Source: Mytilus trossulus (lineage: Eukaryota). From it: DNA of 64,000 nucleotides. The translations under genes were made by a program, and so were the position numbers. Of the stretch, positions 7,322-59,428 are shown piece after piece (position 1 is the first letter of the stretch; the number at the start of each line of letters is the position of its first letter). The DNA is taken from NCBI RefSeq assembly GCF_036588685.1, contig NC_086386.1, forward strand, positions 75,144,001 through 75,208,000, read 5' to 3'. The notes under the pieces were generated by a model. That model had not been told where the DNA came from, made no database searches, and saw nothing but the letters and a program-made list of their open reading frames with translations.

Positions 7322-8290
7322 ATTTTTGTCTCGCTTGACGGAGTCAAAAAGCGATACATAGGTTTGCTGTTTCCGGCGACGGCGGCGGCGGCATCAGCAC
7401 TCTATAAGTTTTTGATTAGGTTTAGTTTATGGAGAACCACAAGTGGTAGGTCAAAGATATTTGGTATACAGTTGTATTAGTATTTGTACCGCTCGTTACC
7501 ATGGAGATTATTTGGCCCCGCTCTCTCAGTTATGGTCTATTGACTTTGAAATGTTGCTTATTTTTCATGTATTAGTTTGTGATTAGGTCAGTTTATGAGG
7601 AACCACTAGTGGTAAGCTAATGCTAATTGGTATGTAGTTGTATTAGCATTAGGATATCTCATTTCCATGGAAATTATTTGGTTCCGCCCCCTAAGTCATG
7701 GTCTATTGACATTGAAACTTTTGCTTAGTTTTTATGTATAAGATGTGATTATGTCAGTTTATGAGGAACTACTAGTGGTAAGTTAATGATAATTGGTATG
7801 CAGTTGCATAAGCATTGGTATATCTCATTTCCATGGAGATTATTTGACCCTGCCCCCTCAGTCATGGTCTATTGACTTTGAAACTTTTGCTTAGTTTTCA
7901 TGTATTAGTTCGTGATAAGATCTGTTTATGGGGAACCACTAGTCGTAGGTCAATGATATTTGGTATGCAGTTGTATTAGCATTGGCACATCTCATTTCCA
8001 TGGAGATTATTTGACACTGCTTCAATTATGGTTTATTGAATTTTTTTTGTTTAGTTTACCTGTATTAGTTTGTGTTTAGGTTTGTTTAAAGGAAACAACT
8101 TATGATAAGTCAATGGCATTTAGTATGCATTAGCACATCTCATTTCCATTGAGATTTTTTAGCCATGTACCTTCAGTTATGGTCCATTGACCTTGAATAT
8201 TTGCAAAACTTACATTGCTATTTTAATTTCAACATTTGCATTATCCAAATTACAAAAAAGCGAGACATATTTCTGTGATAACAGTTTATT
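7322..8290 (+). mobile_element. HINE-like (Helentron-associated) element with internal ~166-bp tandem array
   Basis: 5' tgtctcgc hairpin (7327), (GGC)n microsatellite, ~5 units (ccatggagattatt at ~7499, 7666, 7831, 7998, 8146), 3' gcgagaca inverted repeat (8260) and terminal mini-hairpin, in T-rich flanks. Confidence 0.75.
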
Positions 8291-12158: not shown

Positions 12159-13064
12159 AGACATAACACATTATTCAAATGAAACTAACAGAAACATAAA
12201 AAATGTATGAATGTAGAATGTACAAAACCCCGAGACACGATGTGCAGCAATTTTTTGAACGTATATACTTACAGTGTCTTATTTTTAAATCAGTTCCTTT
12301 GCCGGGGAACTGCACCTTATTGTATCAATACATTTTTGTTGATAAACATTTACATAAAATTAAATATGCGATTATCTAGACTCTAAAAATGTATGGCAAT
12401 ACTTGTATGTTCAATGTAGTTTCGTTTGGTAATTGTTACCGATCTATCAAAACTTATTTGAAAGTTGATCGGTAAATATGATGAAATATAGGTATTTTTT
12501 TATCAGAGTGGCATAGTATACGTTATTTCCGTTCGATAGTATAAGAGGATGTTAGTGGCGAGTTTTACGAAATCGTTTAGGTTTGCAACTTGCAGACAGA
12601 CAGGGGAGGTTTTGGTGTATTCAAGTATGTTTTTCGATATGTGCCTGTCCTCAGTCCTGTTAATCAGTGATTGTTGTGTGTAGCTAAATATATATATTAT
12701 ATTTGTTTTTCGTTCGTATTGTACAGAAGTCGTTTGTATTGTTTTACATTTCTCATTTAATGCCTTTTATAGCTAACTTTGTGGTATAAATTTTGTTCAT
12801 TGTTCCAGGCTGTGAGGAAACCTAAATGTTCTTATTTCTTAGTTGATGTTTGGTAGATACATAGTTGTCTCATCGGCAACCAAACAGAATTTTATTTTCT
12901 TTCTATATAGACACACACACCTCTATAAACAACACATAGCTTGACTAGTAATGGACAAATTCAAATGAACTCAAAAACGTTCATACAAACCTCCCCTCAA
13001 GGCAGTTTGGTAAGCTATGGATAATATTTTAAGAAGAAATATCATTCCTTTCAGATTCATCGAC

Positions 13065-13632
13065 ATGGCTGCTGCACTATTGAATGGAGATATCAAAGGA
13101 CATGCTTCTGCTGTAATGGTAGTATTGGATATTTATCCACAGATTATGAGAGAAATGATACCTAACATTTTTCCTCCGAAAGGTATTTTTATGCAAATAC
13201 AAAATGAACCAAATCAAACATTCTTGAATCAATTGAAAATTACAGAGAAAAAAATGATTTCAAAATTGGACAGTACTGGATACAACGAACTTGATACATC
13301 GTGCCTTTATAAAGTAATAAGATATTTTAATCTGCTACCACCTCCAAAAGCAGGATGGGGACAAAAGCCAAGACATGAAGACATAGGCCAAGGAGATGAT
13401 GTGGAAAGGATGAAAAAAGATCGCAATGATATTCTTCATCGCCCTCGAGGGTTTTTATCCGAATCTGAAAAACATATTTTTTTCCAGCAAAGTATTGAAA
13501 TCGCCAAACGAATCGATATCAGAAGAAAATCACTTCAGAGCAGCTTCGAAAGTAAGATAAAAAATATACAGTTGAGTGTATGCAGCATGGAAAAACATAT
13601 TGAGGTCTTAGAAAAATGTGCAGAATATCGGG
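13065..13632 (+). CDS. Coding exon 1 of the HEPN-STAND-ANK locus: DZIP3-like HEPN domain (HEPN-1)
   Basis: Acceptor ttcctttcag|13055, ATG at 13065, donor G|gtaaat after 13632 (phase 1). Translation has LDTSCLYKVIR...PPPKAGWG...GDDVERMKKDRNDILH, the DZIP3-like HEPN pattern with an intact R-x4-H motif (13422-13439). Confidence 0.85.
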
Positions 13633-14179
13633 GTAAATAAACTCATCATAGATACCAGGATCGAAATTTTGTATTTGCGCCAGATGAGCGTTTCGTCTAC
13701 AAAAGACTCATCAATGACGCTTAAATCAAAGACAATTCAAAATTCAAAATGTTATTTTATGTTTTAGATATTAAGGTTACAATCTATTTCTGCAGTATGA
13801 AAGTTATCAAAATTACTTAATAATAATAAACAAACCTTGCGAAATTTATCAGTACTTCAAGTATTTGAATTCAATTAATAGAGTTGAAATCAAACAATAA
13901 TAAAATGTAAAATGTGTCAAAGAGACATATTTCTACGAGTTTTTAAATCTATTTCTTTAAAGGTTAACATTTTCATTGTGTTCAATTAAAAATCTGTTAA
14001 TAGTTGAAATAGTGTTTTGCTCTTGCAAACCAGTAAGACGTCATATGTCCTATTCAGGAATCAAATTTTCAATAACATATATATAAGAAAATACGAAAAA
14101 AATAGAAAATTAAGAGAAAAAGTGCGAGTGTTTTGTACATTTTTAATAGCTGCAATACAATGATTTCATCATTTTATAG

Positions 14180-14278
14180 CACTGCTACAGGAAAAATCAG
14201 CGGCGCCATGTTTCAATCTTTATTATGGACAAGACATACAGATAAAATTAGATGCTAAAGACGAGAACGGAACAAATG
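14180..14278 (+). CDS. Coding exon 2 (99 nt, phase 1-1), linker
   Basis: attttatag|c ... aatg|gtatgt. Reads open as (A)LLQEKSAAPCFNLYYGQDIQIKLDAKDENGTN(G), in phase with the flanking exons. Confidence 0.75.
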
Positions 14279-14612
14279 GTATGTAAACAAAGAAAGCTTT
14301 GACGATTTTACGTTCCTTTTTCTTGTGCATACAAACAGAAATAGTGCAAAGTGAGTTATGAAATTTATTTTTCAAGCTAAATTTGTTTAGCATCCTCGAT
14401 CTCATGCGTGCGCGTTTTGAATAAATATATGACAGCGACGATTTCGAAGGTAGTTCCGGCAGCATCGTTTAGCGAAATGTAAATCAAGTGAAAAATGATA
14501 TTGGACCAGACTGATTCAAATATATGTAGATATGCAATTTATATAAGAATTATTTATTTTATTTAGAGTGTGTACGTTAACATGTTTAAGTGATTATTTT
14601 TTTTTATTTAAG

Positions 14613-14903
14613 GTTCGAGTTCATGTATCATCTATTTGAAAGACCCACATTTTGATGGAACCAGTGTCATTGAAAAGCTTGATGAAATAAAGGAAAAAAT
14701 TCTTACGAAAGACATTACATTGAAATATGCTGAAATAGGAAGTTTGAATATTCATGTTTCAGTTCTCGATCAATGTTTCTTGACAAAAGAAATACTACAT
14801 AAATCAATACAATACTTCTTATACGAGTTTTTCCGCGCTGCATCAATTCAATACATAAAGGGACATATTTATACAGTAGTATTGGCAGATTCATGTGATC
14901 TAG
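14613..14903 (+). CDS. Coding exon 3: alpha/beta module with a GS-hydrophobic-strand motif (possibly TRADD-N-like)
   Basis: Poly-T acceptor tttaag|14613, continuing into ORF 14636-14917 (DITLKYAEIGSLNIHVSVLDQCF). Donor after 14903 (gtatag) or 14909 (gtttgt), both phase 1. The domain label is inference. Confidence 0.72.
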
Positions 14904-16230
14904 GTATAGGTTTGTGACTTTTGATTACCTGTATACTTGCCATTTTGTAAACTATGTCATATAAATAGAATTCAAACCTTTTTCATACTCTAGGGAATAA
15001 TATTAATCCTTGACTATAAAAGTGAAAATTCTTTCTGAATTTGATTTGCAACAAAAACTTAATTATCGTTTGTCTCTCACAAATTCAAATGAGGACTCCA
15101 TGGATAAATAAACATGCAGTCTTCTCCAAAATGTTATGCGTTTGCAAGTGAAGCTGCAGATATGTTTTTGATGTTATGAATGCCTATAAAAAAAGAAGAT
15201 CATTGACAATGACACAACTCTCCACAAGGGACAAAATGACACGTAAATTAACAACTATAGGTCACCGTATGGCTTCAACAATAAAAAAAAACCTTCACCA
15301 CATAGTCATCTATAAAAGGCCGCGAAATGACAATGTAAACCAATTCAAACGAGAAAACACGGCCTCATTTATGTACAAAGAACTAGTCGTATAATGGTCG
15401 ATAATATACTTTTTTCGAGAGGTATATGTAATCAGTAAAACTAAGTAAAATTGTTTTTAAGGAGGATATAGAAACGAAAAATAAGTGGAAGAACACCTGA
15501 TAGAAAGAAAACGTAATTATGACAGAAAAAACAGTGATCTTATAACAGTTATCAAAAGTACCAGGATTATAATTTTATACGCCAGACGCGCGTTTCTTCT
15601 ACATAAGACTCATCAGTGACGCTCAGATCAAAAAAGTTAAAAAACCAAACACATACAAAGTTGAAGAGCATTGAGGACCAAAAATTCCAAAAAGTTATAA
15701 ACACTACCTTAAAAAAAATGGATTGCGGAATACAAGGATAACTTAATACCGGGGTGATAAAAGTGGAAAAGCAGATTTGGTCTACCAATTGCATAATTAT
15801 GTTGCTCGAAAATACCCATTATCAGCAAAACATATTTGTTCCGAAAAGCTTTTTTGCTTTATTAAAATTGGTGATCTGGTAACAAATTAAACTACAGTGT
15901 GAAAACTAGATTCCTTTACACTATGCATAGAAAATCCATTTTTAGTGTTATTAAAATAAAAAATTTTGAGATGAAATATGAAAAGATAGCTCTAATTACA
16001 TGCTTTAAGATAAGAAAAAGAAAAATGGGGTCAACGGACTTGTTTTCTTGCAAGATATAAGTTTTTATTATATGAAAATTACTTTATTTGAGTTATCTCC
16101 TCTCATTTGTCAAAGTTGAAAAAAAATGAATGAAATACAAATATGGCAAAACTATTTAGATATATCAGCCGTAAATATGATAAAACACATAACGTTCTAT
16201 ATTTACACCAAGAATTCTTTTGTTTTATAG

Positions 16231-16501
16231 ATAACTGTTTAACAGAACGGGTTGACCTTGTCTATCTCAAAGAAAAGCCGTCTCCAGTTTTAAAGTTCCA
16301 TGTTGAAGTAAAAGATTCTGCATTTCAAAATGAATTTGAGCTGTATAAAGAAGTAAACAGATTTATTTCTGGCATGTATTTGTCAGTAGACAGACAAAAT
16401 GTTCCAGTAAATGGATCAGCCAGGGAAGTTTTGATGTTAACTAATGAGCGAGTGGAAAATTCCACATCTCGTCATGAAGCTATTGAGGATCATCAGCTAA
16501 G
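16231..16501 (+). CDS. Coding exon 4: second copy of the exon-3 module
   Basis: Acceptor tgttttatag|16231 (phase 1), within ORF 16143-16505. Ends either at the AG|gtaaca donor (phase 2) or at stop TAA 16503-16505. Confidence 0.7.
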
Positions 16502-16941
16502 GTAACACACTAATTATTAACGGAAATGTAACTGCAAAAATATTGGATGTTTACGTGTTTGTCGTGTTTGGGTCAATAGTCGATAGACGTTTAGAAAATA
16601 TCACAAAGCAGATGCTTTGGTTTACTGTGGAACAAACGCAGTTAGGGCTTAATGTATACGATTTTTCTGTTTATTACTTTACAAATGCATAAAACAAAGC
16701 CCTTAGTAATAAAACTCCTATTAATTCAATTCAAAATCTGCCTAATAATCAGGCAGTGGTGAAACATGACAAACAAAACCAATTCAAGTATACATTATCT
16801 TATGTTCAAAATATAAAATGGTGCATGAATATAACATTCGTTTCCTTTTCCTGTTTGTTTTGCAAGATGTCGCTTAGATCTTTTTATATGATACGAACAG
16901 TTATTGGGCTTTTGAGACCGACTCTGTTGAGTAGAAGAATT

Positions 16942-17745
16942 GTTATGCCCCACCTACGATAGTAGAGGGGCATTATGTTTTCTGGTCTGTGCTTCCGTTC
17001 GTGCGTTCGTCCGTCCGTTCGTTCGTCTGTGCGCCCGTTAAGGTTAAAGTTTTTGGTCAAGGTAGTTTTTGATGAAGCTGAAGTCTAATCAACTTGAAAC
17101 TTAGTACACTTGTTGCTTATGATATGATCTTTCTAATTTTAAAGCCAAATTAGACTTTTGACCCCCAATTGCATGGTCCACTGAACATAGAAAATGAAAG
17201 CGGGAGTTTCATGTTAAAGTTTTTGGTCAAGGTAGTTTTTGATGAAGCTGAAGTCCAATCAACTTGAAACTTAGTACACTTGTTATTTATGATATGATTT
17301 TTCTAATTCTATAGCCAAATTAGGCTTTTGACCCCAATTTCACGGTTCACTAAACATAGAAAATGAAAGTGGGAGTTTCAGGTTAAAGTTTTTGGTGAAG
17401 GTAGTTTTTGATGAAGCTAAGGTCCAATCAATTAAAAACTTAGTACACTTGTTGCTTATAATATGATATTTCTAATTTTAAAGCAAAATTAGACTTTGAC
17501 CCCAATTTCACGGTTCACTAAACATAGAAAATGAAAGTGGGAGTTTCAGGTTTCAGTTTTTGGTCAAGGTAGTTTTTGATGAAATTGAAGTCCAATCAAC
17601 TTGAAACTTAGTACATATGTTCCCTATAGTATAATCTTTCTAATTTTAATGCCAAATTAGATTATTACCCAATTTCACAGTCCATGGAACATGGAAAAGG
17701 ATAGTGCGAGTGGGGCATCCGTGTACTTTGGACACATTCTTGTTA
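16942..17745 (+). mobile_element. HINE-like element with ~170-bp x4 tandem array (intronic)
   Basis: atgccccac (16945) / gtggggcat (17710) inverted repeats, (CGTT/CGTC)n microsatellite, and units starting at ~17043, 17213, 17383, 17550. Confidence 0.8.
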
Positions 17746-19399
17746 TTGTAAGATTTATCTCCCTAAACACTGTTTTTGTTGTCCAGTATCTCCTCTGTTA
17801 CCGTTATAGAAATTTATTTTACCAAATTGCTCGTTATATCGTTAGGATGTTTTGTCCAATTTGACCGAAAAGCAAGAAGACTCCAAATGAGTCTAATTTC
17901 CCTTTATGCATTTGACATATAAAGTGAAATTCATATGTAACTGGTAAACCATAATTGATAGAGACCCCGGGTCTTTGAATATGATACCCTTAGTACTATG
18001 AAAAGAAAATTAGGTCCAAGTCAAGGATCAAGGTCATACTCTTATTTTAATTTGGCTTATTCTCAATTCTGTTCCGTACTGAATATCACGAGAGTATATT
18101 CTACTTAAATTGATATTGCAATATGTAACTCATAAATTTTGTTAAAAGGGTAGGCACACATAAAAAGTGAGTTTTCGGCCGTTTTAAATTAAGAATTATG
18201 TGTATAGATATACAAAAAAATGCATAACTCATAAACCATACATATAACAGACCTAGGGTCTTTAGATTTGAGGTCATTGGTTTATGACCTGAAAATTGAT
18301 TTGAAGGTCAAAGGTAGATTTGACGTTCTAGATTTTGACCTTTGCTTTAAATTCATAAAAAATGTGTGCAGTCATCATAAAGCTATAGAACTTTAAGCAT
18401 TATATTACTAGCAATAAAACAAAATCAAACCGGAACTAGCCTTGTGTGTACCGGAGGTGTCTACTTTTTGTACTTACCTTTAGGAAACCGAAAATAGTCA
18501 TAATGCATCTATTTATTTATAAGTTTTAATAACACGTATTTTTGTTAAAAGGGTATGCATAAAACTCTCATTTGAGACCAAAAATGACATTCAATAACCG
18601 GAAGTAGAAAACTATTTCCCTTATTATAGGTGTAAACAAATTATATATGTTTGGAATCAGTGTATCATATGAGATTGGAAGTGATATTTTCTAGACAAGG
18701 TATCTCCCTTTTTCAGACAAAATGTAAAGAAAACATATATTTTCAATCAGTAAACAGTAACCTATCAATAAACGTCAATTATAACCTTTAGCAAACCGGA
18801 AATAGCTTCTTATCAATAGCTTATATATTGGTTTTTATTTTTTTTTCTTTCATTCGCAACTGTTTTTTCTTGCGAGTTAGTTTTCTTTAGCAAGATGTCG
18901 ATTACATGTTTGTTATATGATATTGCACTGTTAATTTGCCTTTGAAATTGACCAAGCTTAACCGATTACTTCTCTTTAATTTCAGGTCCTTTGTTCATTA
19001 AAACGAAATTGAGGTCATGGTCAGAGGTTAAGGTCAAATTCTGATTTAGGACTTTTCTTGTTTTAGAATCACCTCTCTCACTTTTAAGTATTAACATGAA
19101 AGAACTAGTGCAAAATGTTTGTCTTATTGTGATGAAGATATGACAATAACTTTAGTTTAAGTAAATATTTTTCATAAAATTTTATCAAAAGGTTTAAGAG
19201 GCAATGTCAGAGAGCACCAGGCAGGACTGTTCAACTAAAAAAAATTGATTTGGTCGAGCATATAGTCTACTCTTTCAGTATAACATACTGACTGGGAATA
19301 TATTTTATTTTTTTACAATTTTTGGTGAATTTGACATTTTTTTTTAATGAAATTCAATATAAGCAGTCATACTGCGAATTTTCATTGAATTAAATGGGG

Positions 19400-19735
19400 A
19401 AAAAGCCAGTTTCTAACCGTTTTCAATTATCCATCATCGGAGAAAAATAACGCTTATGACTAAACTACCTATATGGAAGTCTAGTAATATGTTGGTGTAA
19501 AAAAATAATGAAAATAAAATTTCTGGTATCTTTTTAATTTTTTTTTTTAAAAATAAGGTAAAAAAATGCTAAAATAGGAAAAATTGAGAAAATTGAGAAA
19601 AGCCAGTTATTTACCGTTTTCAATTATCAACCACCAGAGAAAAACAACAGTTATGACTAAACTACTTATATGGAAGTATAGTACTATGTTGGTGTAAAAA
19701 AAATAATGAAAATAAAATTTTTGGTATCTTTTTTT
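19400..19735. repeat. Direct duplication of a ~135-bp segment
   Basis: aaaagccagtt...accgttttcaattatc...ttatgactaaactac...ggtatctttt at ~19402 and ~19599. Confidence 0.75.
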
Positions 19736-21894
19736 CTTTTTCAAATACCACAATTGGAAGGTTGGGATTGATTTTGGAGGTGATGGTCCCAACTGTTTAG
19801 GAATTAGGGGCCCGAAAGGACAGCATTTTCTGGTTTCAGGATAATAATTTGTGTATAAGTATTTCTATTGCACTGAAACTGTACCACAATGTATACAACC
19901 ACAGGTAGAAGTTTGGAATTCATTCAAGGGGTAATGGGATAGGAATTCAGGGCCAAAAAGGGTCCAAAAACAAGCATTTTTCTAGTTTCCATACAATAAC
20001 GAGTGTTTAAGTGTATAGATCTCTATGAAATTGTACAAGGTTCAAAGAAAACGCTGGGATTGAGTTTTCGGGTTATTCCTCCAAGGGGGGTTTCAATGAG
20101 TGGGGGGAATTTTTGTTTACAATTTTTTAAAGAGATGCATATTTTTTTTTTCTAAATTTTTCAAATTCAATTTTTGAAAAGTTTTTAAAAAAAATCTTCA
20201 ATAGCACAGTATTGCGCAATAGATTTGTACGATTTTAGACCAGATTTATTTTGTGTCAAAAACCTATAATATGTCAAAAATTTGATCACAATCCAAATTT
20301 AGAGCTGTATCAAGCTTGAATGTTGTGTCCATACTTGCCCCAACTGTTCAGGGTTGACCTTTGTGGTCGTATAAAGCTGCGCCCTGCGGAGCACCTGGTT
20401 TTCATATGATATATAACAGTTATTCCGCTTTAACACTGACCCAATTGAGTCGAAGACGTTTTATTAAAACAGTTATCTCACTGGTTTTGTTGTTTATCTC
20501 TCCTTTACCGTAATAGAAATTTACAAATGTATTTTACCAAATTTCTCGTTATAACCCTAGGATATTTTGTCCAATTTGGAATGTAGCGACGCGAAGATTC
20601 CATATGATAGTTATTGAGCCTTTGAAACTGACCCTGTTTAAGTGTCTCCAAACACTTTGTGTTGCAACAGTTATCTTCCCTTATGCTGTTTTTCTTATAT
20701 GTACCACAGTTTAAGATAACGACACATTATTTTGACAATTTGCGCGGTAAATCCGTAGGATCTTAAGAATAATTTCGACTGAATTTTTCGGAGACTCCGT
20801 ATGAGAGTTATTTCTACGTCTGTATCTTAAATAAGTGAAATTTAATTGTAACTGGTAAACCATAAGTGATATCAAGCCAGAGTCCTTTGAATTGAGGTCC
20901 TTGGTCTACGAAAAATTAAATGAGGTCAAGGTCAAAGGTCAAGATCAGATTCCAAATTTTCATTTTGACTTATATATATTGCTTTTGTGTGTTAGATATC
21001 GACAAAAATGTTAACTTACCTGATATTTTCGACTTGTCGAAACATACATTTTATTGTTTAAAGGGTGTGTTTACATTTGATGGGAGTGTCCTCCTCTCTT
21101 ATACTCAAAATAAGCTGTATTTGGATAAAACTTATCCCACTTACATTAGGAGACTTAGCGTAATTTGATTTGAGGTCCGTGCATTAAGACCTTGACATTT
21201 GGTTCAAGGTCAAAGGAAAATCAACGTTCTAGATTTTGACCTTTGTGATAGATAGTATACATGCCCCTTCTGATCCTTTGCATTAGGTTTGCAGAAATAT
21301 GACATTGGAAAAGTCACCTAGAAGTGACTTTGATTGAACTGGAAGTGGCTTATTATCTCCCTTTTAAATGGGAAAAAGTGCCTCTATCATTGTATTTTAA
21401 ACATTATTGTGTGATAAGCTATACTTCAGGCCCAGACAAACTGTTTTTATCGTACTTGTTTTTTTAATCCTAAGTGAGTTTGAGTGGAAAGACCTCCAAC
21501 TGTTTTCTCCTCTATCCGTTGTTGTACTATAACTTTCATTTTACTAATTTCACTCTTAAAAGAGGGTCAAACAACACCAGAGGGACAGTTAAAATCCAAG
21601 ATCGAAAACAAACTGACAACACCATGGCTTAAAAAAAACAAACAAAAAACAGACAGACAACAATTCATTTACATAAGACACAACATAGAAAACTATAGAC
21701 TAATTATCACGAACCCCACCAAAAACTGGGGATTATCGCATGTGCTCCAGAAGGGTTAGAAGTTCTGCTACACATGTGGCACTCATCGTGTTGCTGATGT
21801 TATTACAAACCCTGTAAATAGTTTTAACTTGGCTCAATGTTAGTCAAGCATTTGGGCGTTTTCTAATTTGTACTTAATCGGGAACAATTATATG

Positions 21895-22247
21895 AGAGCC
21901 GTGGTGTAGTGGTTAGTGCATCGAACTTCTAACACAAAGGTTTCTGGTTCGATTCCCGTTTGGGATGAAAATTTCCGGAACTCAATTTTCGACTCTCCCT
22001 TGACACCATCTGCGAGTATGGTCTTGAGGAAACGATGATAGTCCGTCGGAAGGGGACGATAAATGGCTGATCCGTGTTACGAGAGAGCCATATATCTTGC
22101 ACGTTAAAGACACCCTTGTAGATTTCGAAAAAGATAAGGCTAATGCCGCTACAAGGCAGCACTCGCACCCGCAAAGTGGAAAGGGATTAATATAAGTTGC
22201 AAAACTTGTTTCCCAATCCACTATAGATAAATAGGTTTGAACTTAAT
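21895..22247 (+). mobile_element. tRNA-derived SINE (Meta/Deu-domain type, inferred), near full length
   Basis: A box gtggtgtagtgg, B box ggttcgattcc, central ccgtcggaaggggacg...gcacgttaaagacaccc domain, and a possible TSD ttatatg (21888-21894 / 22248-22254). Confidence 0.75.
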
Positions 22248-23961
22248 TTATATGCAATTTTCTTTCGCTATAATGATGTATATGCTATGGACTACAAACA
22301 CTCCTAGTTTAAATTTTTTGGTCAGTTGCGATGTATGTATACATAGCGGTTTGCCTCAGATGTATTTGTACAAATAAAATTGAGAAAGGAAATTTGGAAA
22401 TGTGTCAAAGCGACAACAACCCGACAATTGAGCAGACAACAGCCGAAGGTCACCAATGGGTCTTCAGTGTAGCGAAAAACTCCCGCACCCGGAGGCGTTC
22501 ATAAGCTTGCTTCTTAAAAATATGTATAAACGTGCAGTGATTATGGACGTCATAATAAACTCCGAATTATACACTAGAAACTAAAATAAAAATCATACAA
22601 GACTAACAAAGGCCAGAGACTCCTGACTTGGGACAGGCGCAAAATTGCGGCGGGGTTAAACATGTTTATGAGATCTCAACCGTCCCCTATACCTCTTGCC
22701 AATGTAGAAAAGTAAACGCATAACAATACGCACATTAAAATTCAGTTCAAGAGAAGTCCGAGTCCGATGTCAGAAGATGTAACAAAAGTATGTATGATTG
22801 AATTTTTAAGTCAATTGTATATGTAAATTTCATAAGATAAAAACCGTTTGCGTGCCAGTACGGAACAAACCAATTTTTATTTAATAATAATCATGACACC
22901 TACCTGCACGTCTTGATTAAAATCCAGACAAAAATCCCTTGTTAAAAACGCTTTGTCAGGAAATGCAGAGAAAAACACGGAAGTGCGTTACCCATGCCCA
23001 ATGTGCGTACAAACAGTTTCAAGACCATACGATTATCATTTTGTTTAAACTGCCTTTTTGTCGTCCGTTTTGTTTGTCCGTGTGTCATCACAAACTTGTT
23101 TTTAAATATCTTGAAGCATTTGAATGAATCTCATATAAACATGATTGTTTGTAATAAAACAGGTATTGTTGGAAAATTGATTTGAATATAACAAAATGAG
23201 CTTCCATATTTAGATGAAATAAGGACGTGCTGTTTGTGTTTTTTTAATGTTTTAATTTGTATCGATCTGATGAGTTAAGCCTTTTTAACAGATTGTGACA
23301 GTTTGTTCATATGTTGTGTTGTTACAACTCTGTAACAGCTAGAGGAGGGTTAAAAGTTCTTAAACACTTTTAATCCCACCGCATTCTTTTCTTTTCCCAA
23401 GCCAACAGGTGTAGTTGTCGTTAGTTTATGTTTGTTATATTTTGTTTTTCATGAACTTTGTGTGATAAATTAGGACGCGCATTTCTTCTGTTGAATTGCT
23501 TCATATTGTTCATTTCGGGACCATTTATCGCCCACGTTACGGTGTGGTTTTTTTTTCTAATTGTTCACGACATTTTCAGGATCATAAGGCTGTCTATAAT
23601 TGCATACATTCATTCTAACTCTGTAGGATGATTATCTGATCGACCATCCTACGACATCTCTTTATTTTTATGTAGACTTATATAGGTATTTGATGAAGAT
23701 TAAACCAGACAAACGCTTTAATAATAGTCAATTAAAAAGTGTAGTTTTCAGTTATCAAATCATACTATATATGAAGATTGAAAGTTCACAAGAATGATGA
23801 TTAAAAGATAAAATGTTTTGAAAAAACTTCTTTGATTGGTTCAGAAATTTAATTTATGTTTGTCTTTTAATTCATCTTGTGTATTCATGAATTATTGTGT
23901 TTAACACATGGTTTCTCATTGAATTGTTTGGATTAGTTATTCTTTAGTTAATTTCATTTAG

Positions 23962-24185
23962 AATGGCACAGGAACCTGTAGTCAGTAAAGAGGACTCAAA
24001 TTACTTCAAAATTGCAACATTGTTACTGAGAATTGCACCACGAGCAGTAAGAATAAAATTTGATGATGTATTTCCTGCAATGACTTTAAAAGAAACACTG
24101 AATTTGCATAAAAGTAAAATAGATGATTTAAAAACAGCTCGGTGTATAAACCAGGTACATTGGAAAACACTGTTTCCTAGAAAAG
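23962..24185 (+). CDS. Coding exon 5 (or first exon of a second gene): N-terminal half of DZIP3-like HEPN-2
   Basis: atttcatttag|a ATG(23963). SKEDSNYFKIATLLLRIAPRAVRIKFD...CINQVHWKTLFP is the typical N-terminal part of a DZIP3-like HEPN. Donor G|gtatgt after 24185. Confidence 0.85.
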
Positions 24186-25539
24186 GTATGTCTTACATTT
24201 TTAGTTTATAAATTAAATTCAAGAATGACGTGTCAAATTTTCTCCCAATTTCTTATTGTGACGTCGTGTGCAAAGGCGACCTTGCTCGATGACGTTACAT
24301 AAAATGAACACATAATTTGCAGATCATTTGTAAGGACAAACTGAATTCTATTGCATATCGTTTAAAAATCATTATACAGAGACTGATTCTACCATCAACT
24401 CGTGTGTGATACGATATTTGTATTGACTGTTTTTAATTTGAAAATTTAACTGTCTCGAGTGCAGTTGCAAAATCAATATTTATAATGATCATTATAATTT
24501 CAGTTCATAGTGTGTTTTTTTTTATATATATATCTTATATGAAATCCATATGAAAACGTAACAAGCTTACACACGGGTCAGATGCTTTTTTTGTTCTAGG
24601 GTGCAGGAAGCTGTACTATTATCTAATATACTCAAAGAAGTGAAATCAATGATATAGTGATAAATATTGGGTTTAAAAGGTTAAAAAATCAGGAAGCGAA
24701 GCAAGAAAGATAACTGAGTTATGAATTTTATGTATTCGTGATTTGTTAATTACCTTTTCGGCATTATGTTTGGTATATGTGGTACCTGCTACATCGATAC
24801 CTTGTGTAGTAATTGATTGCTGTCCGTTTGACAGGATTCCTCTGGATAATACCATATTTTGTTAATGCTTTATTTGTTATTACATAGTTTCCAACTTGTA
24901 TGCAAATGATAATAAGATATGCAGCAAGACAGAAGCTTTACTTTTACCTAAAATTGGGGATTTGTTTTAGCAATATTATTAAAGTACCACTTACATCAAA
25001 TTGAAATATTTTAATACTTTGCACAATTTAAAGAAACCTACATCGCCAAACTCAGTCAAATTTAACAACACTTACCGTTATCTTGATAAAATTTGTGTTC
25101 AGATATTCAGGAATTTTCTAAATATGCTGCCAAAATAGATTAAAAGCAAATTATTTACGTTATACCAAATGATTATAGCAATAACTGCCCTATCGTAGAT
25201 TAAGATAATTAAGTTTCACACGGGAATTTCTTCAAAAACATATGCCAAAAAATGTAGGATTTTTCTTTCACTTTTCTTATGGTTGGTTAAAACCCGAGAT
25301 TTATGTGAAAGGCCAAGCTCTGTTGCAAATACTTAGAAAAGCCGTCGTGTTATTTCTTTGATCAGTCCGGTAATGATGGAAGGTTATTGTGACTGAAGAA
25401 AAATTTTACTATATAAAACAATATCATGAAAAAGGGGTTAGCGGGCATTTTATTTATATGACACTTCATATAAGTAGAGGATTCCGAATATTTGGCAATA
25501 AGGAAATATTCTTTATAACGCACAAAAATGTCAGTATTC

Positions 25540-26320
25540 ACCTCAAAAGCTAACAAAACCTTTAAATAGACTAAGGAAGAAGGGATATAGTTACGATACT
25601 GTTGTCTGGTCATTTAAGATTGCATATTTTGGCGTTAATATTGATTCACTTATAGGGTCTTTGCATCGGAACTAAACAAATTTATTTAAAAACCAGTTGT
25701 TGGCATGACACGGGTTATGTTCTTCTCATATATGTTATGATGGTATGATATTTAACCCCTCACGGGAAGGATTGTGCCTGATATTCATATGATGAAGACA
25801 TAATCTTTCAATCAGTTTAGTTGAAGTCTGGAGCTGGCATGTCAGTTAACTGCTAGTAGACTGATGTTTTTTATGTATTATTGTCATTTTGTTTATTTTC
25901 CTTGGTTACATCTTTTGAAATCAGACTCGGACTTCTCTTGAGCTGAATTTTAATGTGCGTATTGTTATGCGTTTACTTTTCTGCATTGGCTAGAGGTATA
26001 GGGGGAGGGTTGAAATCTCATTTACATGTGTAACCCCGCCGCTTTTTTGCGCCTGTCCCAAGTCAGGAGCCTCTGGCCTTTGTTTGTCTTGCATTACTTA
26101 AATTTTTAGTTTCTTGTGTACAATTTGGAGTTTAGTATGGCGTTCATTATCACTAAACTAGTATATATATTTGTTAGGGGGCCAGCTGAAGGACGCCTCC
26201 GGGTGCGGGAATTTCTCGCTGCATTGAAGACCTGTTGGTGACCTTCTGCTGTTGTCTGCTCTATTGTTGGGTTGTTGTCTCTTTGCCACATTCCCCATTT
26301 CCATTCTCAATTTTATTTTA
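25540..26320 (+). mobile_element. 3' part of an abundant Penelope-like retroelement or derived repeat
   Basis: ORF-like end KPLNRL.KKGYSYDTVV...GSLHRN* followed by a repeat also found at 22372-22790 (opposite strand), 52175-52695 and 8370-8570. Confidence 0.6.
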
Positions 26321-26485
26321 ATTTTCGATATATCTCTGAAACTAAGCAAAATTTTAACGGTTGCATTATTGCATGCATCAATTGCAAATAAAAATATCAG
26401 GTGAGCAACACAGGCTCCTAGAGCCTCTAGTTGAGATTCCCATTGTTTCTGATCTAGTTTTTTATCTAAGGTGTTATTGTTTCAG

Positions 26486-26703
26486 GTGATCCTATATCCC
26501 AGTCATTTGATACAACACTGATGATATGCCTCCTACAGAACCTGAAAGGCATCCACATAACCAATCAAATCCCCTATCATACAGATTACAGTGTCGGTGC
26601 TGACCTCTCACGAATAAACATCTATAGAAAGGATATAGCCAACTCTAATAAAGGAACATTTAAAAATCAATTATTCACAACCTATTGGAAAGATATAGAA
26701 GCA
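26486..26703 (+). CDS. Coding exon 6: core of DZIP3-like HEPN-2 with degenerate catalytic motif (RKDIAN)
   Basis: ttgtttcag|26486 (phase 1). Reads GDPISQSFDTTLMICLLQNL...GADLSRINIYRKDIAN...YWKDIEA. Donor GCA|gtaaga (phase 0). Confidence 0.85.
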
Positions 26704-26998
26704 GTAAGAATGACTATTTTCAGTTGTGACGAGCTTTTCGTTATTTAAAATCAACCGGATCTTATTTTAATTTTTGTTTTTGCAATTATTTATATACGAA
26801 CTAGGATATGTGACATGTTTGATAATAGTCCAACAAAGATCAAAGGAACTATATTTACTGCAAAGCCCATACAATATAATGACAAGAATTTTCGGTTCAA
26901 TTGTTTACTATGATGATACATGATTATGAGTTTAATGAAGTCTTGTAAAAATTATTTTAAGGTTTAAAATAACCCTGTATTTTGTTCTGTTATTAAAG

Positions 26999-27167
26999 GC
27001 TGTCCTGCGACTAAGTGGTGGCATATTAAAAGGAGAATGCAGCAATTTAAAAACCAAGTCATATGTTGTTGCAGACAGGAAAAATGCTCTTAACAATATA
27101 CAGGCTGGTAAGAGATTAGTACAGATTGAAGTTGAAGACAGATTGGGCAAATTTGAAAACAAACAAG
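26999..27167 (+). CDS. Coding exon 7: end of HEPN-2 plus helical linker
   Basis: ttattaaag|GCT (phase 0). Reads AVLRLSGGILKGECSNLKTK... Donor after 27167 (gtttgt) or 27107 (gtaaga), both phase 1. Confidence 0.75.
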
Positions 27168-29044
27168 GTTTGTATGACAAAAATACTCATAGGCGAAATG
27201 ACATCTACGTGTCCAGATATATCAAGCGATTTAATATTCAGTATATTTCAGTTGTGAAAAAACCTTTGTATCCTTATTTTAATTATAGATGGACTTAGTT
27301 TTTCAGCCAGTTAACATTACATTCACATATATTTATTGCAGTTAAAGTTTAAACAAATTTAATAAAACTCTTAAACTATCCTGGATTTGTACAAAACTTG
27401 GACAGGAACTTGTTTATTATATAAAGCTATAATATAAAAGGAAAGTTTGTAAAATTTGTTATCTGTTTTTCTGTATATAGCATGTACATGGCCTTACTTT
27501 GTCTTTCAGTTAATAGTATATATAGTCTACAGTTAAAGTTTTAAAAACATTTATTAGATTCATAACCCATCCTGGAATTTTACCAAAGAGACAGTAACTT
27601 CTTACATTCTAAAGATAATATTTAAAGGAAAGTTGTCAATATTTGTTGAGATTGCGACTTGCAAAAAAAGTAGACGAGATACTAGGTTCCGCCAAATCCT
27701 TACGATTTACTTTTAGGATAATTACAAGCAAATTTTAAGCTTGAAACTGTTAATGAAAGCGTTTCTTTTAAGGAAAGATCGAATTCAAAGTTGAAATGTT
27801 TTTCTTTGTTATACAATAGCTTGAATAAAGGTGAAAATCAACAATTGTAATGTGTTTTTGATCAGGAAACAACAATACTAAAATTAAATTAAACACATTT
27901 GTTCAGAAAGGTTACTACCAATAGTAAAGATGTCTCATTGAATAAATATATATCATAGAATTTTCATTGCTCAATTTTAGATGAAAATAAGTCCTTCAGC
28001 AGCTTTTATTGCGACTTCGTTTTGAATAATTTGGTCATTTACCTGACTTACTTATGCAAACGTTTCCGCATCACTTTTGTTTTTAAAACACTTTTTGCAT
28101 CTATTAGTAAAAAAAGTTATCATTTGAATTATTAGTTTGATATGTTTTCATTTTGATATTATAATACTTAGAAGTCATATTAACAAACATGATACTTCTA
28201 TCAGCTATGATTTGAAACAAGAATTGAGAAAGTCAGAAACATAAACACAACCAAAAATAAATGAATTTAGCTATGGTCAAATTGCCAAATACACTCATGC
28301 ATTAGAGAGCGTGGTTTCATATTATCGAAGATTGTGCCTCTAAAGAAGCAATCTGAAGCTTGAATAACAAGGTGTGATAGTTTTGCCACTATGTGTGATA
28401 CAATTAATATTTGAGAGAAAAAATCACATGTTTATCCAATTTGAGCTTCGTGAAACTGTTTTAGATAGATACCGTATCATGCTGGATATTTCTCATGTTT
28501 CGGCTTAAACTGAAAAATACGAAAATATCAAAAATTGCTGATCATGACAGAGGCAAGTTTTAAAAATAATTTGCCATTCAATTATTCATAGTCGTAACAA
28601 AAGAAATTAATATAGAAAAATCTCCGAAGGAATGTGGTATACGATTATTCATATGTGGATTAACGTACAATAAAATATATTAATAGATTGCTGCTTGCAG
28701 TGCCAATGAAATAGGAATATCCTTGGGTTTAAACATTTCACCTAGTCTAAACTGCATCCGTCCTCCATGAGTTCAACTTTAATACAGTTATACGAAATAA
28801 TTTTCCTAAAATCTTTGACTTTACATATTTTGGTTTAAACATCGTTTTCATCGTCCTCTTCTCCAAAAATTGCGATGTGAAAAGTTGATTCCTACAACTA
28901 TCAAATACTGGTACTAGCCAAACTATACGTGTAGCAACTGTTGTGTCAAGCTTTTTACCTTTGCATGTAAAAAATAAGTTATCGAAAAACTACTGAAGAA
29001 ATAATACCCCAAAAGAAAATCAGCAAAACACATTTCATTTATAC

Positions 29045-30247
29045 AAAAAAGTATTGCAACACCAAACTCAAATTCAAATTAAAAAAAAACCTCTTTTTTT
29101 GTGATATAATTAAATAGAACTAGTTTATCATTATTTGAATCTCACCTGAGTTTAATCAATAACTATTGACTCGATAAGTTCTTATCTGCACATGCAGCAA
29201 CTGTACCCGTAAACAATAATACAGATGTGAAGTTATGTGATTGACATCTTGTAATTGGTCATCCTCGACTCTTAACTGAAGCAAGATGGCAGATTATCAG
29301 CATGAGAGAAGCAGGTATGTCGCTGTGACAATTGCACGTATTGTTGGTCATCACCATTCCACTACATGTCATTATGAGAATAAAATACAGAAAACAAACG
29401 ATGTTAAAGACCTTTCGAGATCAAGAAGACCCCCCATAACATCTTCTAGGGAAAATTAAGCATAATGAAGTCTGTTAAGAAGGAAACCCATTGCAAACAA
29501 TAACAATCATAAAAAGAGTGTTGGCCATACAGTAACCTTTAAACAATTACTGTTCGAGATCGACTCATCGCTACTGGTTAACGTGCGATAAGACCCTTTC
29601 GGGGATATTTGCATACGTATAGACACATAGTTACCCGTATCCAATATAGTGCAGAGCTCGCCAAAGTTGGAAATAAGCCTCGTTGAGGAAGATCAATTGT
29701 TCCAATGAAATTCTGTTTATCTTTTGGCTCGATTGCAGCCCGGATTGGGACCATAGCGTGCATATATTAGACACAATTGGGCGTAAAGTGTGCGAAATGA
29801 CACCCCAGTTCAACCACGTCATCAAATAAACAATGCCCTTCATCAGGAATGGTTGTTGCTACCTTAGCAATAAATTAGTCAACTTTTAGCAGGAATCAGA
29901 AGACGTTAAGAGGCGGTTATCCGTTGGAATGGAGGCTGCGCAAAAAGTATTAATTCTTTGGCGTATATCGATCAACCAGGATGTGAACAATCATCTTAAG
30001 ATTAATTTTGAAATGTCTGCAATTGTAAAGTTCATCTACAGTAAAAGTTGTAAAATGCATTTATTTTTGTACAAAAAACACTCCACTTTGTAATCCATAT
30101 TGTGGTTAGGTTAATCATTTTTTTTTTCATACAATTTTTGTTCGTTTTGATGCCAATGTTATCATTAACTATGTTTTGACATGATTTAACATTTTTTTTT
30201 ATATTCCATCCAAACAATCAAGGTGTTGCAATACTTTTTTCCATGTG
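29045..30247 (+). mobile_element. Decayed Tc1/mariner DNA transposon in the intron before the STAND exon
   Basis: 19-bp perfect inverted repeat aaaaaagtattgcaacacc (29045) / ggtgttgcaatactttttt (30222), TA at the right flank, and transposase remnants RWQII.MREAGMS, VKDL.RSRRP.IT and W..CSPD...(WPARSPDLNPIE-like). Confidence 0.78.
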
Positions 30248-31049
30248 TATATATCAAACATTATTTTTGGCAAGAAGTGTATGTTAGCATGCCTCTGCTG
30301 GTGGACTATTAGTCCCCGAGGGTATCACCAGCCCAGTAGCCAGTACTTCGGTACTGCCATGCAAATACGGATTTTTTTGTGTTATTAAAATTTGCTGTTA
30401 CAAAATGATAGAAATTATTATAAATTAAGGAATGTATCTTCCTCATGCAAAGCTCTGATTCCTTTCACGGATTTGGCTTTTTTTTTGGAACTTTTGGATT
30501 ATAGCTCTTCATCTTTTATATAAGCTTTGGATTTAAAATATTTTGGCCACGAGCATCACCGAAGAGACATATGTAATGCGCATATAACTCGGGTGTGTTT
30601 TTATACATCCCGTTTGAAAAGAATAAAAATTTACTCATTTTTTAATTTGCTGATGCCAACATCGATATATGTGCCAATGCAAACTATATTAAAGCTCTAA
30701 TTACAACAAAGATAAGACTACATTTACTGATAACCTTGTTTATCGATCGTTAAATAAAGGCGACAGTAGTATTATAGTATACCGCTGTTCAATGACATCA
30801 CTTCACACACAGGGATGTATGTTGCTATATAATTTTCTCAGGGTTAATGAATGTAGAACCACGATAAAACTAGTTAACTTTGACCGTACGGCTAATGTTA
30901 ATGTTTGTATAAGTCCAGATGTGAACAATTACGAATGAAACTTTTTGTATGCATCAGGTTCATACTGAATACTGAATATATGGTTACTTAGGCCATGAGT
31001 GATTCAGATAAATGAAAATAAAATCACGAATAAGTTTTTGTCTTTATAG

Positions 31050-34000
31050 GTAGCTTCATGGCGAAGAAAGAAGAAGAATGGGAAGAAGAGAGTTCATGGT
31101 TTGTACAAACAAAGGCATTTACCTATATCGTTAATAATTTAGATGAAAGACATTTGACTGTTGTAGGAAATCCAGGTATGGGCAAATCTATGCTTCTGCA
31201 CCAGACAGCTATATATCTAAGGAATGTAAAAGGTTATTCTATATACTCTTGTCGTGGACCATCAGATTTAGTTAGTCAATTTAGGACAGATACAAAACAA
31301 GTGTTCATTTTAGATGATGCGTTAGGACAGTACAGATTAGTACAGTCGAATGTTGACCAATGGAAACAATATGAAGTCAGAATTGCAAGACTCTTACAGA
31401 GTAAATCAGTAGTGGTACTATCTTCGTGTAGATCGGACGTGTTTATAGAAAAACAATGCCAAAGCCTTTTGATCTTTTCTGGGTGCCGATGTGATCTTAA
31501 TGATGGTGATAACGCAATTGATAGACAGGAAAAACTTACAATTGCGAAAAGATACCTCAGTCAACAAACAATTTCTGAAGTTATATCAGACGTGGACAGA
31601 TTTGATACGTTCCCATTGTTATGTCGTTTGTATACAGAGAGAGTAACCTTGAGCTCTATTAAATTTTTCCATGAACCGTTCAATTTTTACAAGGAAGAGT
31701 TGGATGGGTTTTACAAAGAGGATGGTGGGATAAAATGTTGTTCTCTATTTCTCTGTGTTATACACAATGGATACCTCAATCAGACAATACTGATGGATGA
31801 GTCTACATCTCCTTTTTGGCAAGAATTCAAAGCAGTCTTTGAAGAGTTTCGATTAGATCCAATTATGTTTCAAGAAAGCGTTCTTTATTACTTAGATACA
31901 CTTGTAAACCTTTATCTCATAAAGAAAGATGACGATTTCCATGTGTTACATGATAGATTATTCGATTTCCTTTGCTTCTATTTTGGTCAGCGCCACCAAC
32001 AACTAATGATAAATTTTGCTGACAGTAGAATTATCAGGGACCGAACTTTATTAGATACTTCACAAACCAGTTCAGAAGAATTTACAATTGTCATAGATAC
32101 ACAGAATGAGAATGATTATATTCAAAGATTGGTAAAAGATATGTTAAGTGGTAATATCGAGGATGTACTGTATAATCATCAGATGCGTTATATGGATTTT
32201 AGGTGTAAACTTCTAGCTCATCTTCAGAAATTAGATGACGATGATTTCACAGTCACAAATGTATTAAGCGAGTTTTTAGTTAATGAAAATGTAAAACCAT
32301 GCATATTAATACCTATTAATTTTGCATGCAAATATGGTTATAAAGAGTTATTTCATTTTTTTCTAACTAAAACTAAGGATATCAATGCATATGAAGGAAA
32401 TAATATTCCTCTCATAACAGCTTGCCGAAAAGGAGATACATACATGACAGGCTTGCTTTTAGATAGAGGTGCGGATGTTAATCAAACAGATGTTTTAGGG
32501 TGTTCACCATTACTTTGGTCATGTGTATATGGAAATTTATCGATAATAAAAATGCTTCTTAACCAGACAGCAGACATAGAAAATATTGAGGTATATAACA
32601 AGTCTAGTCCTTTGATATGGGCTTGTGTGGGTGAATTCTTATTATTTTGCAAGTCATTACATATTATAAAAGAGTTTCCTAGTTCTTCTATTGTAGATGA
32701 AGTTATTTCCATTCAAGTCGAAAATGCAAACGAACAATATTTCACTCAAGAACAAATAATCGATGTGTTTTTAACAGTGCTAAAAAATGGCTATTCAAGA
32801 GGTTGCTTCGAAGCAGAGGAAAAATATGTGAAGGGCACACCATCAGGATTTTTGAGTGATGTGCGAAACATACTAAGAATGATAAGTAGAGACGATAAAG
32901 AAGTTGATCATGATGTTAGTATCCAGTCTCATGAAATTGATCAGACTTCACCATTTATTGAAATTATGAATTTATTCTTTGATAGAGGTGTTGACATTGA
33001 CAAGTCTTCAATTGGTGGTATAACAGCACTTTCATTTGCTTGTATGGTTGACATGCATAAAAGTCAGTCCGTTAGCTACCTTCTTTCAAAAGGAGCATTT
33101 GTCAACAAATGTGACATAAAAGAAACATATCCCCTAGAAATTGCAATGAAACGTGGAAAGGAAAACTTAGTTAAGTTACTTGTTGACAATGGTGCTATAG
33201 TTAATTGTTCGGCTGATGGAATATCTCCAATAGATTGGGCAATTAGTAAACAAAATATTCTTATTGTTGATAGTCTCATTAATGCTGGAGCAAACATAGA
33301 TAAAAGCTATGAAAATGGGACTACACTCATTCATTGTGCAATAAAGTCTTGCAATGAAGAAATCATTAAATTATTGATTAAAGGAGGAATATCGGTTAAC
33401 TGTGTCAATTCTGCAGGGGAGACCCCCCTTATGGTTGCATTAAATCTTGGCTTATCAAAATCTGCAGCATTTTTTATCAAAAAAGGAGCCAACGTTGATA
33501 CGTATGATTCTAAAGGACAATCATCGCTAATGATTGCATCATCAAAGGGACATGTTGATATGGTTGAAATGATGCTAAGAGAAAAACGAAAATTTACGAA
33601 AAGGCAAACTGTAGATTGCCTTTTTTCTGCATGCCGAAATAATCACATGCAAGTTGTTAGTTTCTTGTTAAAGAAAGGCTGTGACATCAATATAGCTGAA
33701 CCAAAGTATGGAAATACATGCTTAATAGAGGCTGTTCGTGATGGGTATGCATGTATGGTAGCTCTTTTACTCGATAAAGGGGCAAATACTAATGCTTCAA
33801 ATAGCGCTGGGGAAACTCCTCTTACAATGGCATCTAAGAATGGCCATACTGAAATTGCTCGACTTCTCGTTTCAAAAGAAGCTACAATGTATGAGTCGAA
33901 CAACAATATTGAATGTTCTCTTATCCTTGCATGTATAAACAACCATTTAGACATTGTCAAATTATTAATAGATAATGGATGTAATATTGACTGTATTGAA

Positions 34001-59200: not shown

Positions 59201-59428
59201 ATTAACATCTAAGAAATAGTTAAATTCATGTTTATGATTTGTGTCATTATTGTTTCATTATTGTAACAATTATAAAAATCATTGTAATACATTGTTTTGC
59301 TCTTCATGGGCCCTTAAATTGGAATAAAAATATCTTATCTTATACAGACTTAAAACTCTTTTTGGATTTGTTGCACATACCAGACTCAGATACACATACT
59401 GTTTGTTTTATTTTCCAGATTTACAGCA

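Follow-up and report, generated by a model that had tools for sequence, protein, structure and literature searches.

The closest described relatives of the gene examined here are the DZIP3/hRUL138-like receptors of bivalves, in which an N-terminal HEPN domain, a central STAND nucleoside triphosphatase (NTPase; NACHT or nSTAND3) and C-terminal repeats are joined (PF18738; PMC9646362, PMC3710099). The gene lies in a 64,000-nucleotide stretch of DNA (NC_086386.1, positions 75,144,001 to 75,208,000, forward strand; the window, numbered from its first letter). It shares this plan and falls in the same receptor class as the Mytilus proteins P0022 and P0023, which are HEPN-nSTAND3-ankyrin chains with the motif RNKIAH. 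It differs from the DZIP3-like receptors in that the NTPase-proximal HEPN (HEPN-2) is degenerate, an intact HEPN (HEPN-1) and a TRADD-N-like module have been added in front, and the chain ends in a hydrophobic tail. We read the gene as an innate-immune receptor of about 1,950 residues, in which HEPN-1, as part of a mobile cassette, supplies ribonuclease (RNase) activity in trans and HEPN-2 is retained as a non-catalytic structural domain. This reading, to which we give slightly less than an even chance, starts from the observed motifs, exon structure, clade, constraint and cassette mobility.

HEPN RNases use two motifs, in which the arginine at position 1 (R1), a polar second residue and the histidine at position 6 (H6) matter (PMC3710099; 10.1101/760058). 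In engineered Las1 HEPN/HEPN' chimeras, a pair of one wild-type motif (WT) and one with asparagine for histidine (WT/H6N') was built and still cuts, mostly one base off (10.1101/760058). Cas13 likewise carries two HEPNs per chain, but both of its motifs are needed intact (10.1101/760058). The window protein is not of this type, as one motif is intact and HEPN-2 is without N2 and H6, and a pairing in cis is hypothetical. RNase L and Ire1 combine an ankyrin sensor, a nucleotide-binding module and a HEPN RNase. The window protein is like these KEN-type proteins in its ankyrin sensor, and differs in having a STAND NTPase for the (pseudo)kinase, an N-terminal HEPN and two HEPNs per chain. In the paired sensor/helper nucleotide-binding leucine-rich-repeat receptors of plants and in the JAK kinase/pseudokinase tandems, an impaired module stands beside a working one. 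For the window this is an analogy only, one chain being better supported than two genes. Dimerisation in trans would be a further likeness to RNase L and Ire1 (10.1101/760058).

TRADD-N expansions have been reported in sessile marine invertebrates including bivalves, where a constant TRADD-N region is combined with HEPN, STAND, ankyrin and RIG-I-like receptor partners (Kaur et al. 2021, PMC8195603). The window gene follows the same plan of constant region and variable partners, with no DED seen here and with the TRADD-N identity of its module only a lead. The main text of PMC8195603 has 0 occurrences of Mytilus, and its passages on such fusions do not discuss pairing of active and pseudo-HEPNs; in PMC7773633, HEPN appears only among the references. 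In the literature searched, neither a conserved pseudo-HEPN clade nor an active/pseudo HEPN tandem was found in bivalves; the Figure 4 source data of PMC8195603 and the supplements of PMC9646362 lay outside the search and may hold cases. The parts and their shuffling are already known. No description was found of a conserved R-K-x3-N clade that follows a mobile active HEPN.

Exon structure and the two HEPN motifs

The window is AT-rich and intron-bearing and its named close relatives are all Mytilus, so it was read as mussel genomic DNA. Eight exons give one open frame of 1,958 residues with a single terminal stop, and all seven introns are GT..AG with matching phases. An alternative exon 7 donor at 27107 is also in frame and gives 1,938 residues. 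The domain order is HEPN-1, TRADD-N-like module, HEPN-2, coiled coil, nSTAND3, ankyrin repeats and hydrophobic tail, and the features are as follows.

13065 to 13632, +: exon 1; HEPN-1, divergent DZIP3-like subfamily, intact RNDILH at 13422-13439
14180 to 14278, +: exon 2; 33-codon linker or strand of the cassette, GT..AG, phase 1-1, matched in P0005, P0013, P0014 and P0015
14613 to 14903, +: exon 3; alpha/beta domain, TRADD-N-like as a lead; edge of an RNA-like contig at 14612
16231 to 16501, +: exon 4; repeats the exon-3 domain in part; an in-frame stop at 16503-16505 overlaps the donor
23962 to 24185, +: exon 5; N-terminal half of HEPN-2; one base, then ATG at 23963-23965; edge of an RNA-like contig at 23960
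26486 to 26703, +: exon 6; HEPN-2 core with degenerate RKDIAN at 26626-26643
26999 to 27167, +: exon 7; final helix of HEPN-2, then coiled coil, a long helix in the model of the relative P0027
31050 to 35086, +: exon 8; nSTAND3 (about 31115-31574; Walker A from 31166), helical region, ankyrin repeats, stop
35000 to 35056, +: C-terminal hydrophobic helix, possible tail anchor; Kyte-Doolittle 17-mer value 3.03

The exon model was compared with four sequencing runs over 12700-32600, whose RNA nature is a guess. Contigs of run X2 leave the genome at 14612, 16226, 23960 and 31048, and a contig of run X6 leaves it at 31048. The model predicts edges at 14612, 16228, 23960 and 31048, so that three of the four acceptor edges are exact and one is two bases off. 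The 31048 edges of the two runs agree with the 27167 donor and disagree with that at 27107. Run X1 spans the RKDIAN motif and is possibly itself the source of the window sequence. Among annotated models, P0005 (M. galloprovincialis) covers exons 2-8 in one chain, with 54% identity over residues 192-760. The similarity of exon 3 to exon 4 was matched or exceeded by only 6/2000 shuffles.

Translation of 13422-13439 (+) gives RNDILH, which confirms the intact R-N-x3-H that the initial annotation had reported there. R, N, D, I and H are invariant in 8/8 aligned relatives, in keeping with R-[N/D/H]-x3-H, and R-N-D-I-x-H is retained in each of the 7 longer proteins in which the HEPN-1 exon was found. 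Against PF18738 the exon scores 20.6 bits (E 4e-4), under the cut-off of 27; the HEPN-1-type relative P0019 reaches 32.4 bits, and HEPN-1 is recovered by a profile built from the family. The second reported motif was also present: 26626-26643 (+) translates to RKDIAN inside a DZIP3-like HEPN domain, and aligns column for column with the R-N-x3-H of intact family members. The segment 26488-26703 scores 48.8 bits against PF18738, above the cut-off of 27, and the whole HEPN-2 domain of P0005 scores 82.4 bits. HEPN-2 departs from R-[N/D/H]-x3-H, with N at position 6 in 10/10 rows of the clade described below. The rest of the domain is open, exons 5-7 being in frame, as had been stated. It had been placed next to the NTPase, which was not borne out: HEPN-2 spans three exons (23962-27167), not one, and lies 3.9 kb upstream of the NTPase.

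Clade and constraint of HEPN-2, and the HEPN-1 cassette

A phmmer search with HEPN-2 of P0005 gave 945 representatives at E 0.001, and the best 150 of 945 were used. From these and the matches of the other searches, 195 HEPN domains of at least 70 residues were aligned, 12 without the motif column were dropped and 183 were kept. R-x4/5-H is present in 141/183 of the aligned domains, one R-x6-H domain being counted as degenerate. With the motif columns removed, a clade of ten domains was obtained with support of 100/100 (54-row subset; bootstrap not fully settled), consisting of the window, P0005, P0027, P0177 (M. galloprovincialis), P0021, P0028 (M. edulis), P0017 (M. coruscus) and three fragments. 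Four rows are near-copies, which leaves about six independent lineages. The motif of the clade is R-[KR]-x3-N-S, with R in 10/10, K in 9 and R in 1 at position 2, N6 in 10/10 and S7 in 10/10. P0022, P0023 and the second HEPN of P0041, all with RNKIAH, are the closest rows outside the clade, together with the degenerate tandem P0020/P0179, and the wider grouping of these with the clade is weakly supported (89/77). An alternative conserved histidine of the AbiV or AF0298 type was sought in HEPN-2; the best column has it in 4/7 rows, and not in the window domain. A pattern search of metagenome contigs returned 170 matches, none of them a relative. By its distribution in the clade the degenerate motif is old and fixed, and N2 and H6 were probably lost once, in the clade ancestor.

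Conservation of the remaining domain was examined in five clade lineages (50-68% identical). With columns ranked by conservation in the 141 intact domains and motif columns left out, identity fell from 0.75 in the top third to 0.54 in the middle and 0.43 in the bottom third, and clade constraint correlated with family conservation (rho 0.42, p 4e-8). Between the window and P0005, HEPN-2 is 60% identical, nSTAND3 56% and the ankyrins 50%. This pattern at the protein level, in which column identity tracks family conservation, rejects neutral evolution of HEPN-2, and supports the earlier statement that the domain is conserved. At this level HEPN-2 is under purifying selection, slightly weaker than that on the intact clades.

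The HEPN-2 model of P0027 is a helical bundle with a predicted local distance difference test (pLDDT) score of 83.4. Its best fold match is Csm6 4rgp (Z 6.7, root-mean-square deviation 3.5, 111 aligned), and it also matches AbiF 8vz6 (Z 6.0), both below the bar for helical bundles. Complex prediction of the window HEPN-1 (178 residues) with HEPN-2 of P0005 (171 residues) scored 0.00 in 2/2 runs, which is uninformative either way, as the pair is not cognate and the runs were without alignments or folded controls.

HEPN-1 has a different distribution. The block of HEPN and exons 2-4 precedes CARDs and a RIG-I-like helicase in P0019 (partial in P0016 and P0018), and is also found ahead of unrelated low-complexity tails (P0013, P0015), of nothing (P0014) or of HEPN-2 (P0017). 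Neither the helicase fusions nor P0013 and P0015 have a second HEPN, so HEPN-1 does not depend on HEPN-2, and this domain content weakens the case for obligate HEPN-1/HEPN-2 pairing; the initial annotation had overlooked that HEPN-1 belongs to such a mobile cassette. The two HEPNs occupy distant parts of the family tree, which rules out their origin by tandem duplication; a comparison of their alignment profiles was driven by the shared exon-3/4 region and carries no information on this.

In P0019, P0016 and P0018 the cassette (homologous to 13065-16501) heads a CARD-bearing RIG-I/MDA5-like helicase, so that an RNA sensor is joined to a predicted RNase. Separately, NME8-like nucleoside diphosphate kinase (NDK) domains stand ahead of the exon-3 module in P0017 (M. 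coruscus), P0021 (M. edulis) and P0024. They sit between the equivalents of exons 2 and 3 (14278-14613), through domain capture in one subclade or a repeated merge of gene models.

The TRADD-N-like identity of exons 3-4 is a lead that comes from Atlas features, not from Pfam or a clear fold match. Exon 3 has feature matches of 0.93 and 0.90 to clusters in which 18% and 58% of members, respectively, carry PF20694 (one source), and no Pfam match to the exon 3-4 module was obtained in 11/11 members. The cassette model is poor (mean pLDDT 49.6) and confident only at residues of about 200-320. Fold searches with it gave ferredoxin-like matches, with TRADD-N 1f3v at rank 23 (E 0.15), a best Z of 5.4 and no Foldseek match at E 0.001. 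A PDB sequence search with the cassette alignment gave 0 matches at E up to 1.

Role of HEPN-2 and number of products

STAND NTPases oligomerise on ligand binding. In the receptor as we read it, a mobile four-exon cassette of HEPN and TRADD-N-like module would have become joined by splicing to the first coding exon of an older receptor of the HEPN-nSTAND3-ankyrin type, of which the ATG at 23963-23965 is probably the ancestral start. The resident HEPN would have lost N2 and H6 once in the clade ancestor and would since have been kept for its fold. Binding of a ligand by the ankyrins would oligomerise the NTPase, and HEPN-1 domains from different chains would then meet to form the two-motif RNase site. 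HEPN-2 would stay outside catalysis, as a dimerising spacer or RNA-holding domain between cassette and NTPase. Because HEPN-1 is used in chains without HEPN-2, HEPN-1 homodimers are the simplest reading. RNase L H672N is inactive, His-to-Asn at H6 being the standard inactivating change (PMC5648034), and a homodimer of HEPN-2 should therefore be dead.

Motif loss was compared between single-HEPN and multi-HEPN proteins. With the clade left out, 124/132 domains in single-HEPN proteins are intact, and 15/39 in multi-HEPN proteins; the Fisher p of 1e-12 overstates the case, as the rows are related, some models are faulty and the search query is itself degenerate. Motif loss is nevertheless common in multi-HEPN chains. 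The 19 multi-HEPN proteins outside the clade comprise 9 all-degenerate, 6 mixed and 4 all-intact ones. For pearl oyster, 194/202 proteins keep the motif (PMC9646362).

Some individual tandems may be noted. P0056, P0059, P0104 and P0136 have an intact HEPN followed by a strongly degenerate one, three of them (P0056, P0059, P0104) with immunoglobulin (Ig) domains and P0056 also with a transmembrane-like segment, an independent active/pseudo tandem in receptor-like proteins. P0041 (M. coruscus, one model) has two intact HEPNs, one of each type, before nSTAND3-ankyrin and without the TRADD-N-like module, and its NTPase is only 27% identical to that of the window.

Three points speak against a purely structural HEPN-2 beside an active HEPN-1. 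R1, N6 and S7 are invariant in 10/10 rows, which goes beyond the needs of a mere spacer. Five intact comparator groups are slightly more constrained than the clade (0.79-0.88 in the top third, rho 0.45-0.71). The RNase activity of DZIP3-like HEPNs is termed putative in the relevant text of PMC9646362.

The invariant residues could instead belong to an asymmetric composite site, a distinctly unlikely alternative in which HEPN-1 would have HEPN-2 as its partner, in cis or trans, and R1' and N6' would come from HEPN-2. Such a site would have three of the four R/H residues, as in a natural WT/H6N' enzyme with an altered cut site or rate. Besides R1, N6 and S7, K or R at position 2 is kept in 10/10 rows, and K2 and N6 are both invariant in the five lineages, as are only 6/40 comparable polar off-consensus columns. 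In P0041, moreover, an intact domain of the HEPN-1 type stands beside an intact HEPN that falls close to the HEPN-2 clade. RNase L WT/H6N' mixtures keep their specificity, and like the Las1 pair remain functional (10.1101/760058). A WT/H6N'-like pair therefore need not be dead, a point missing from the initial annotation. However, HEPN-2 has lost N2 as well as H6, and in Las1 two changes in one motif opposite a wild-type one (R1E+H6A with WT') nearly abolish cleavage, though at different positions (10.1101/760058). R1 is kept in 22/32 degenerate domains outside the clade and may be structural, the helicase fusions carry HEPN-1 without HEPN-2, and the two HEPNs come from distant subfamilies.

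An autoinhibitor or decoy has a low probability. HEPN-2 would hold HEPN-1 in a dead cis heterodimer until the NTPase is activated, or would bait pathogen inhibitors of HEPN RNases. An unregulated RNase would presumably be harmful, the fold of HEPN-2 is constrained, and tandems of intact and degenerate HEPNs turn up repeatedly in chains that are not related, as the 6/19 mixed proteins outside the clade, including P0056, P0059 and P0104 with Ig domains. However, the cassette also occurs in chains without a pseudo-HEPN, and the 9/19 all-degenerate proteins show that a dead domain need not have an active one beside it.

HEPN-2 could also be a slowly eroding relic, made redundant by arrival of the cassette and kept only since unfolding of an internal domain would harm the chain. 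The lower share of intact motifs in multi-HEPN proteins and the constraint slightly below that of the intact groups agree with this, as do P0017, whose motif contains a proline and whose helix 1 is one residue shorter by a gap, and the models of P0028 and P0024, which are incomplete. Such a relic is rather improbable, for three exons with matching outer phases should be dispensable, yet HEPN-2 is as conserved as the NTPase (60% versus 56%), and the new motif letters K2, N6 and S7 show no drift.

The initial annotation had left the choice between an intact/pseudo pair in one chain and a sensor-helper gene pair. The pair itself stands, and HEPN-1 and HEPN-2 very probably lie in one main chain. 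One chain is favoured because the splicing is phase-compatible, with phase 2 on both sides of the joint of 16501 to 23962 that we infer, and because six annotated models join the exon-4 module to HEPN-2. The module is upstream of HEPN-2 in 6/6 annotated relatives with upstream sequence (P0005, P0017, P0021, P0024, P0027, P0177), directly so in five of them and after a repeat stretch in P0017. The methionine that opens exon 5 is leucine in 4/6 of these relatives (P0021, P0024, P0027, P0177) and serine in two near-identical fragments (P0125, P0128), so translation could not start there in those copies. The contig edge at 23960 is also the one predicted by the exon 4-5 joint.

Against one chain, and hence against the receptor as we read it, stand several observations, which also make the case for two products. 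The joint was not displayed in the RNA-like runs, as repeats filled the joint table. Sequence beyond the contig edges is unplaced (37 letters upstream at 23960), and the same edge would result from whatever upstream exon ended in AG. Past the exon-4 donor at 16501 the unspliced frame runs directly into the stop at 16503-16505, P0014 (419 residues) and P0178 terminate exactly at the donor residue, and exon 5 carries its own ATG after a 7.5-kb intron. The relatives that support the joint are predicted gene models, and HEPN-1 is present in only 2/7 chains with the exon-4 module and HEPN-2, namely the window model and, with intervening NDK domains, P0017. Separate genes or alternative transcripts would give a 410-residue HEPN and TRADD-N-like protein and a pseudo-HEPN-nSTAND3-ankyrin sensor from ATG 23963. 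With the phases, the six models and the lost methionine on the other side, this arrangement, and with it the sensor-helper pair, keeps only a small share of the probability.

Sequencing error, a rare allele or fresh pseudogenisation has virtually no chance of explaining RKDIAN: both altered codons (AAG, AAC) are indeed one base from Asn and His codons, as had been pointed out, but this is no sign of recent decay, because nine further sequences share this state, six of which are assigned to three Mytilus species, with pairwise identities of 50-68%, and the 10-row clade (10/10 degenerate) thus rules out error, rare allele and fresh decay.

A bolder proposal, which we consider unlikely, is that an active HEPN works with a conserved R-K-x3-N pseudo-HEPN of the same chain as a half-site pair, by which RNA cleavage is gated or retuned under the control of a membrane-anchored STAND sensor, and that such pairs evolved several times in bivalves, also in the Ig-domain HEPN tandems. 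If true, the half-site pair would be to nucleases what kinase/pseudokinase tandems are to kinases. Should HEPN-2 be no more than a spacer, the gene is an ordinary product of a fast-shuffling family. Under the favoured reading, with the structural HEPN-2, the locus would allow the replacement of an effector through exon shuffling to be traced, in which the cassette moves between RIG-I-like and STAND sensors and the resident HEPN becomes a conserved pseudo-enzyme. The clade would also provide a natural counterpart, with R kept and H changed to N, to the engineered chimeras that address the two-motif requirement and the half-dead partner. Bivalves have hundreds of HEPN-bearing immune genes, for which the literature terms RNase activity putative (PMC9646362).

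NTPase, tail and neighbouring features

The nSTAND3 domain scores 75.7 bits against PF20720 (cut-off 27.2); its Walker A motif, GNPGMGKS, is intact, and VFILDD resembles a Walker B motif. The domain is followed by 16 stretches that match Ank_2. In the C-terminal region, Kyte-Doolittle 17-mer hydrophobicity is 1.95-2.66 in P0001, P0002 and P0004 and at most 1.26 in the other 11/15 proteins examined. A hydrophobic C-terminal helix is thus seen in 4/15 nSTAND3-ankyrin proteins (the window, P0001, P0002, P0004), and not in P0022, P0023 or P0041. The helix suggests a tail-anchored STAND receptor.

Downstream, a 574-residue frame at 54497-56221 (+) has B-box zinc fingers, a coiled coil and a C-terminus resembling a beta-propeller, and is thus TRIM-like, a kind of gene that is expanded in mussels. 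Two frames in 59354-61834 (+) each have a TRAF-like zinc finger and an F-box, resemble an internal duplication and are presumably FBXO30/40-like. Tandem arrays with a period of about 166 bp (three places) and a 20-30-bp minisatellite are found among 7403-8013, 17041-17711, 52932-53365 and 44181-45046, and the intronic repeats have very high summed depth in the sequencing runs.

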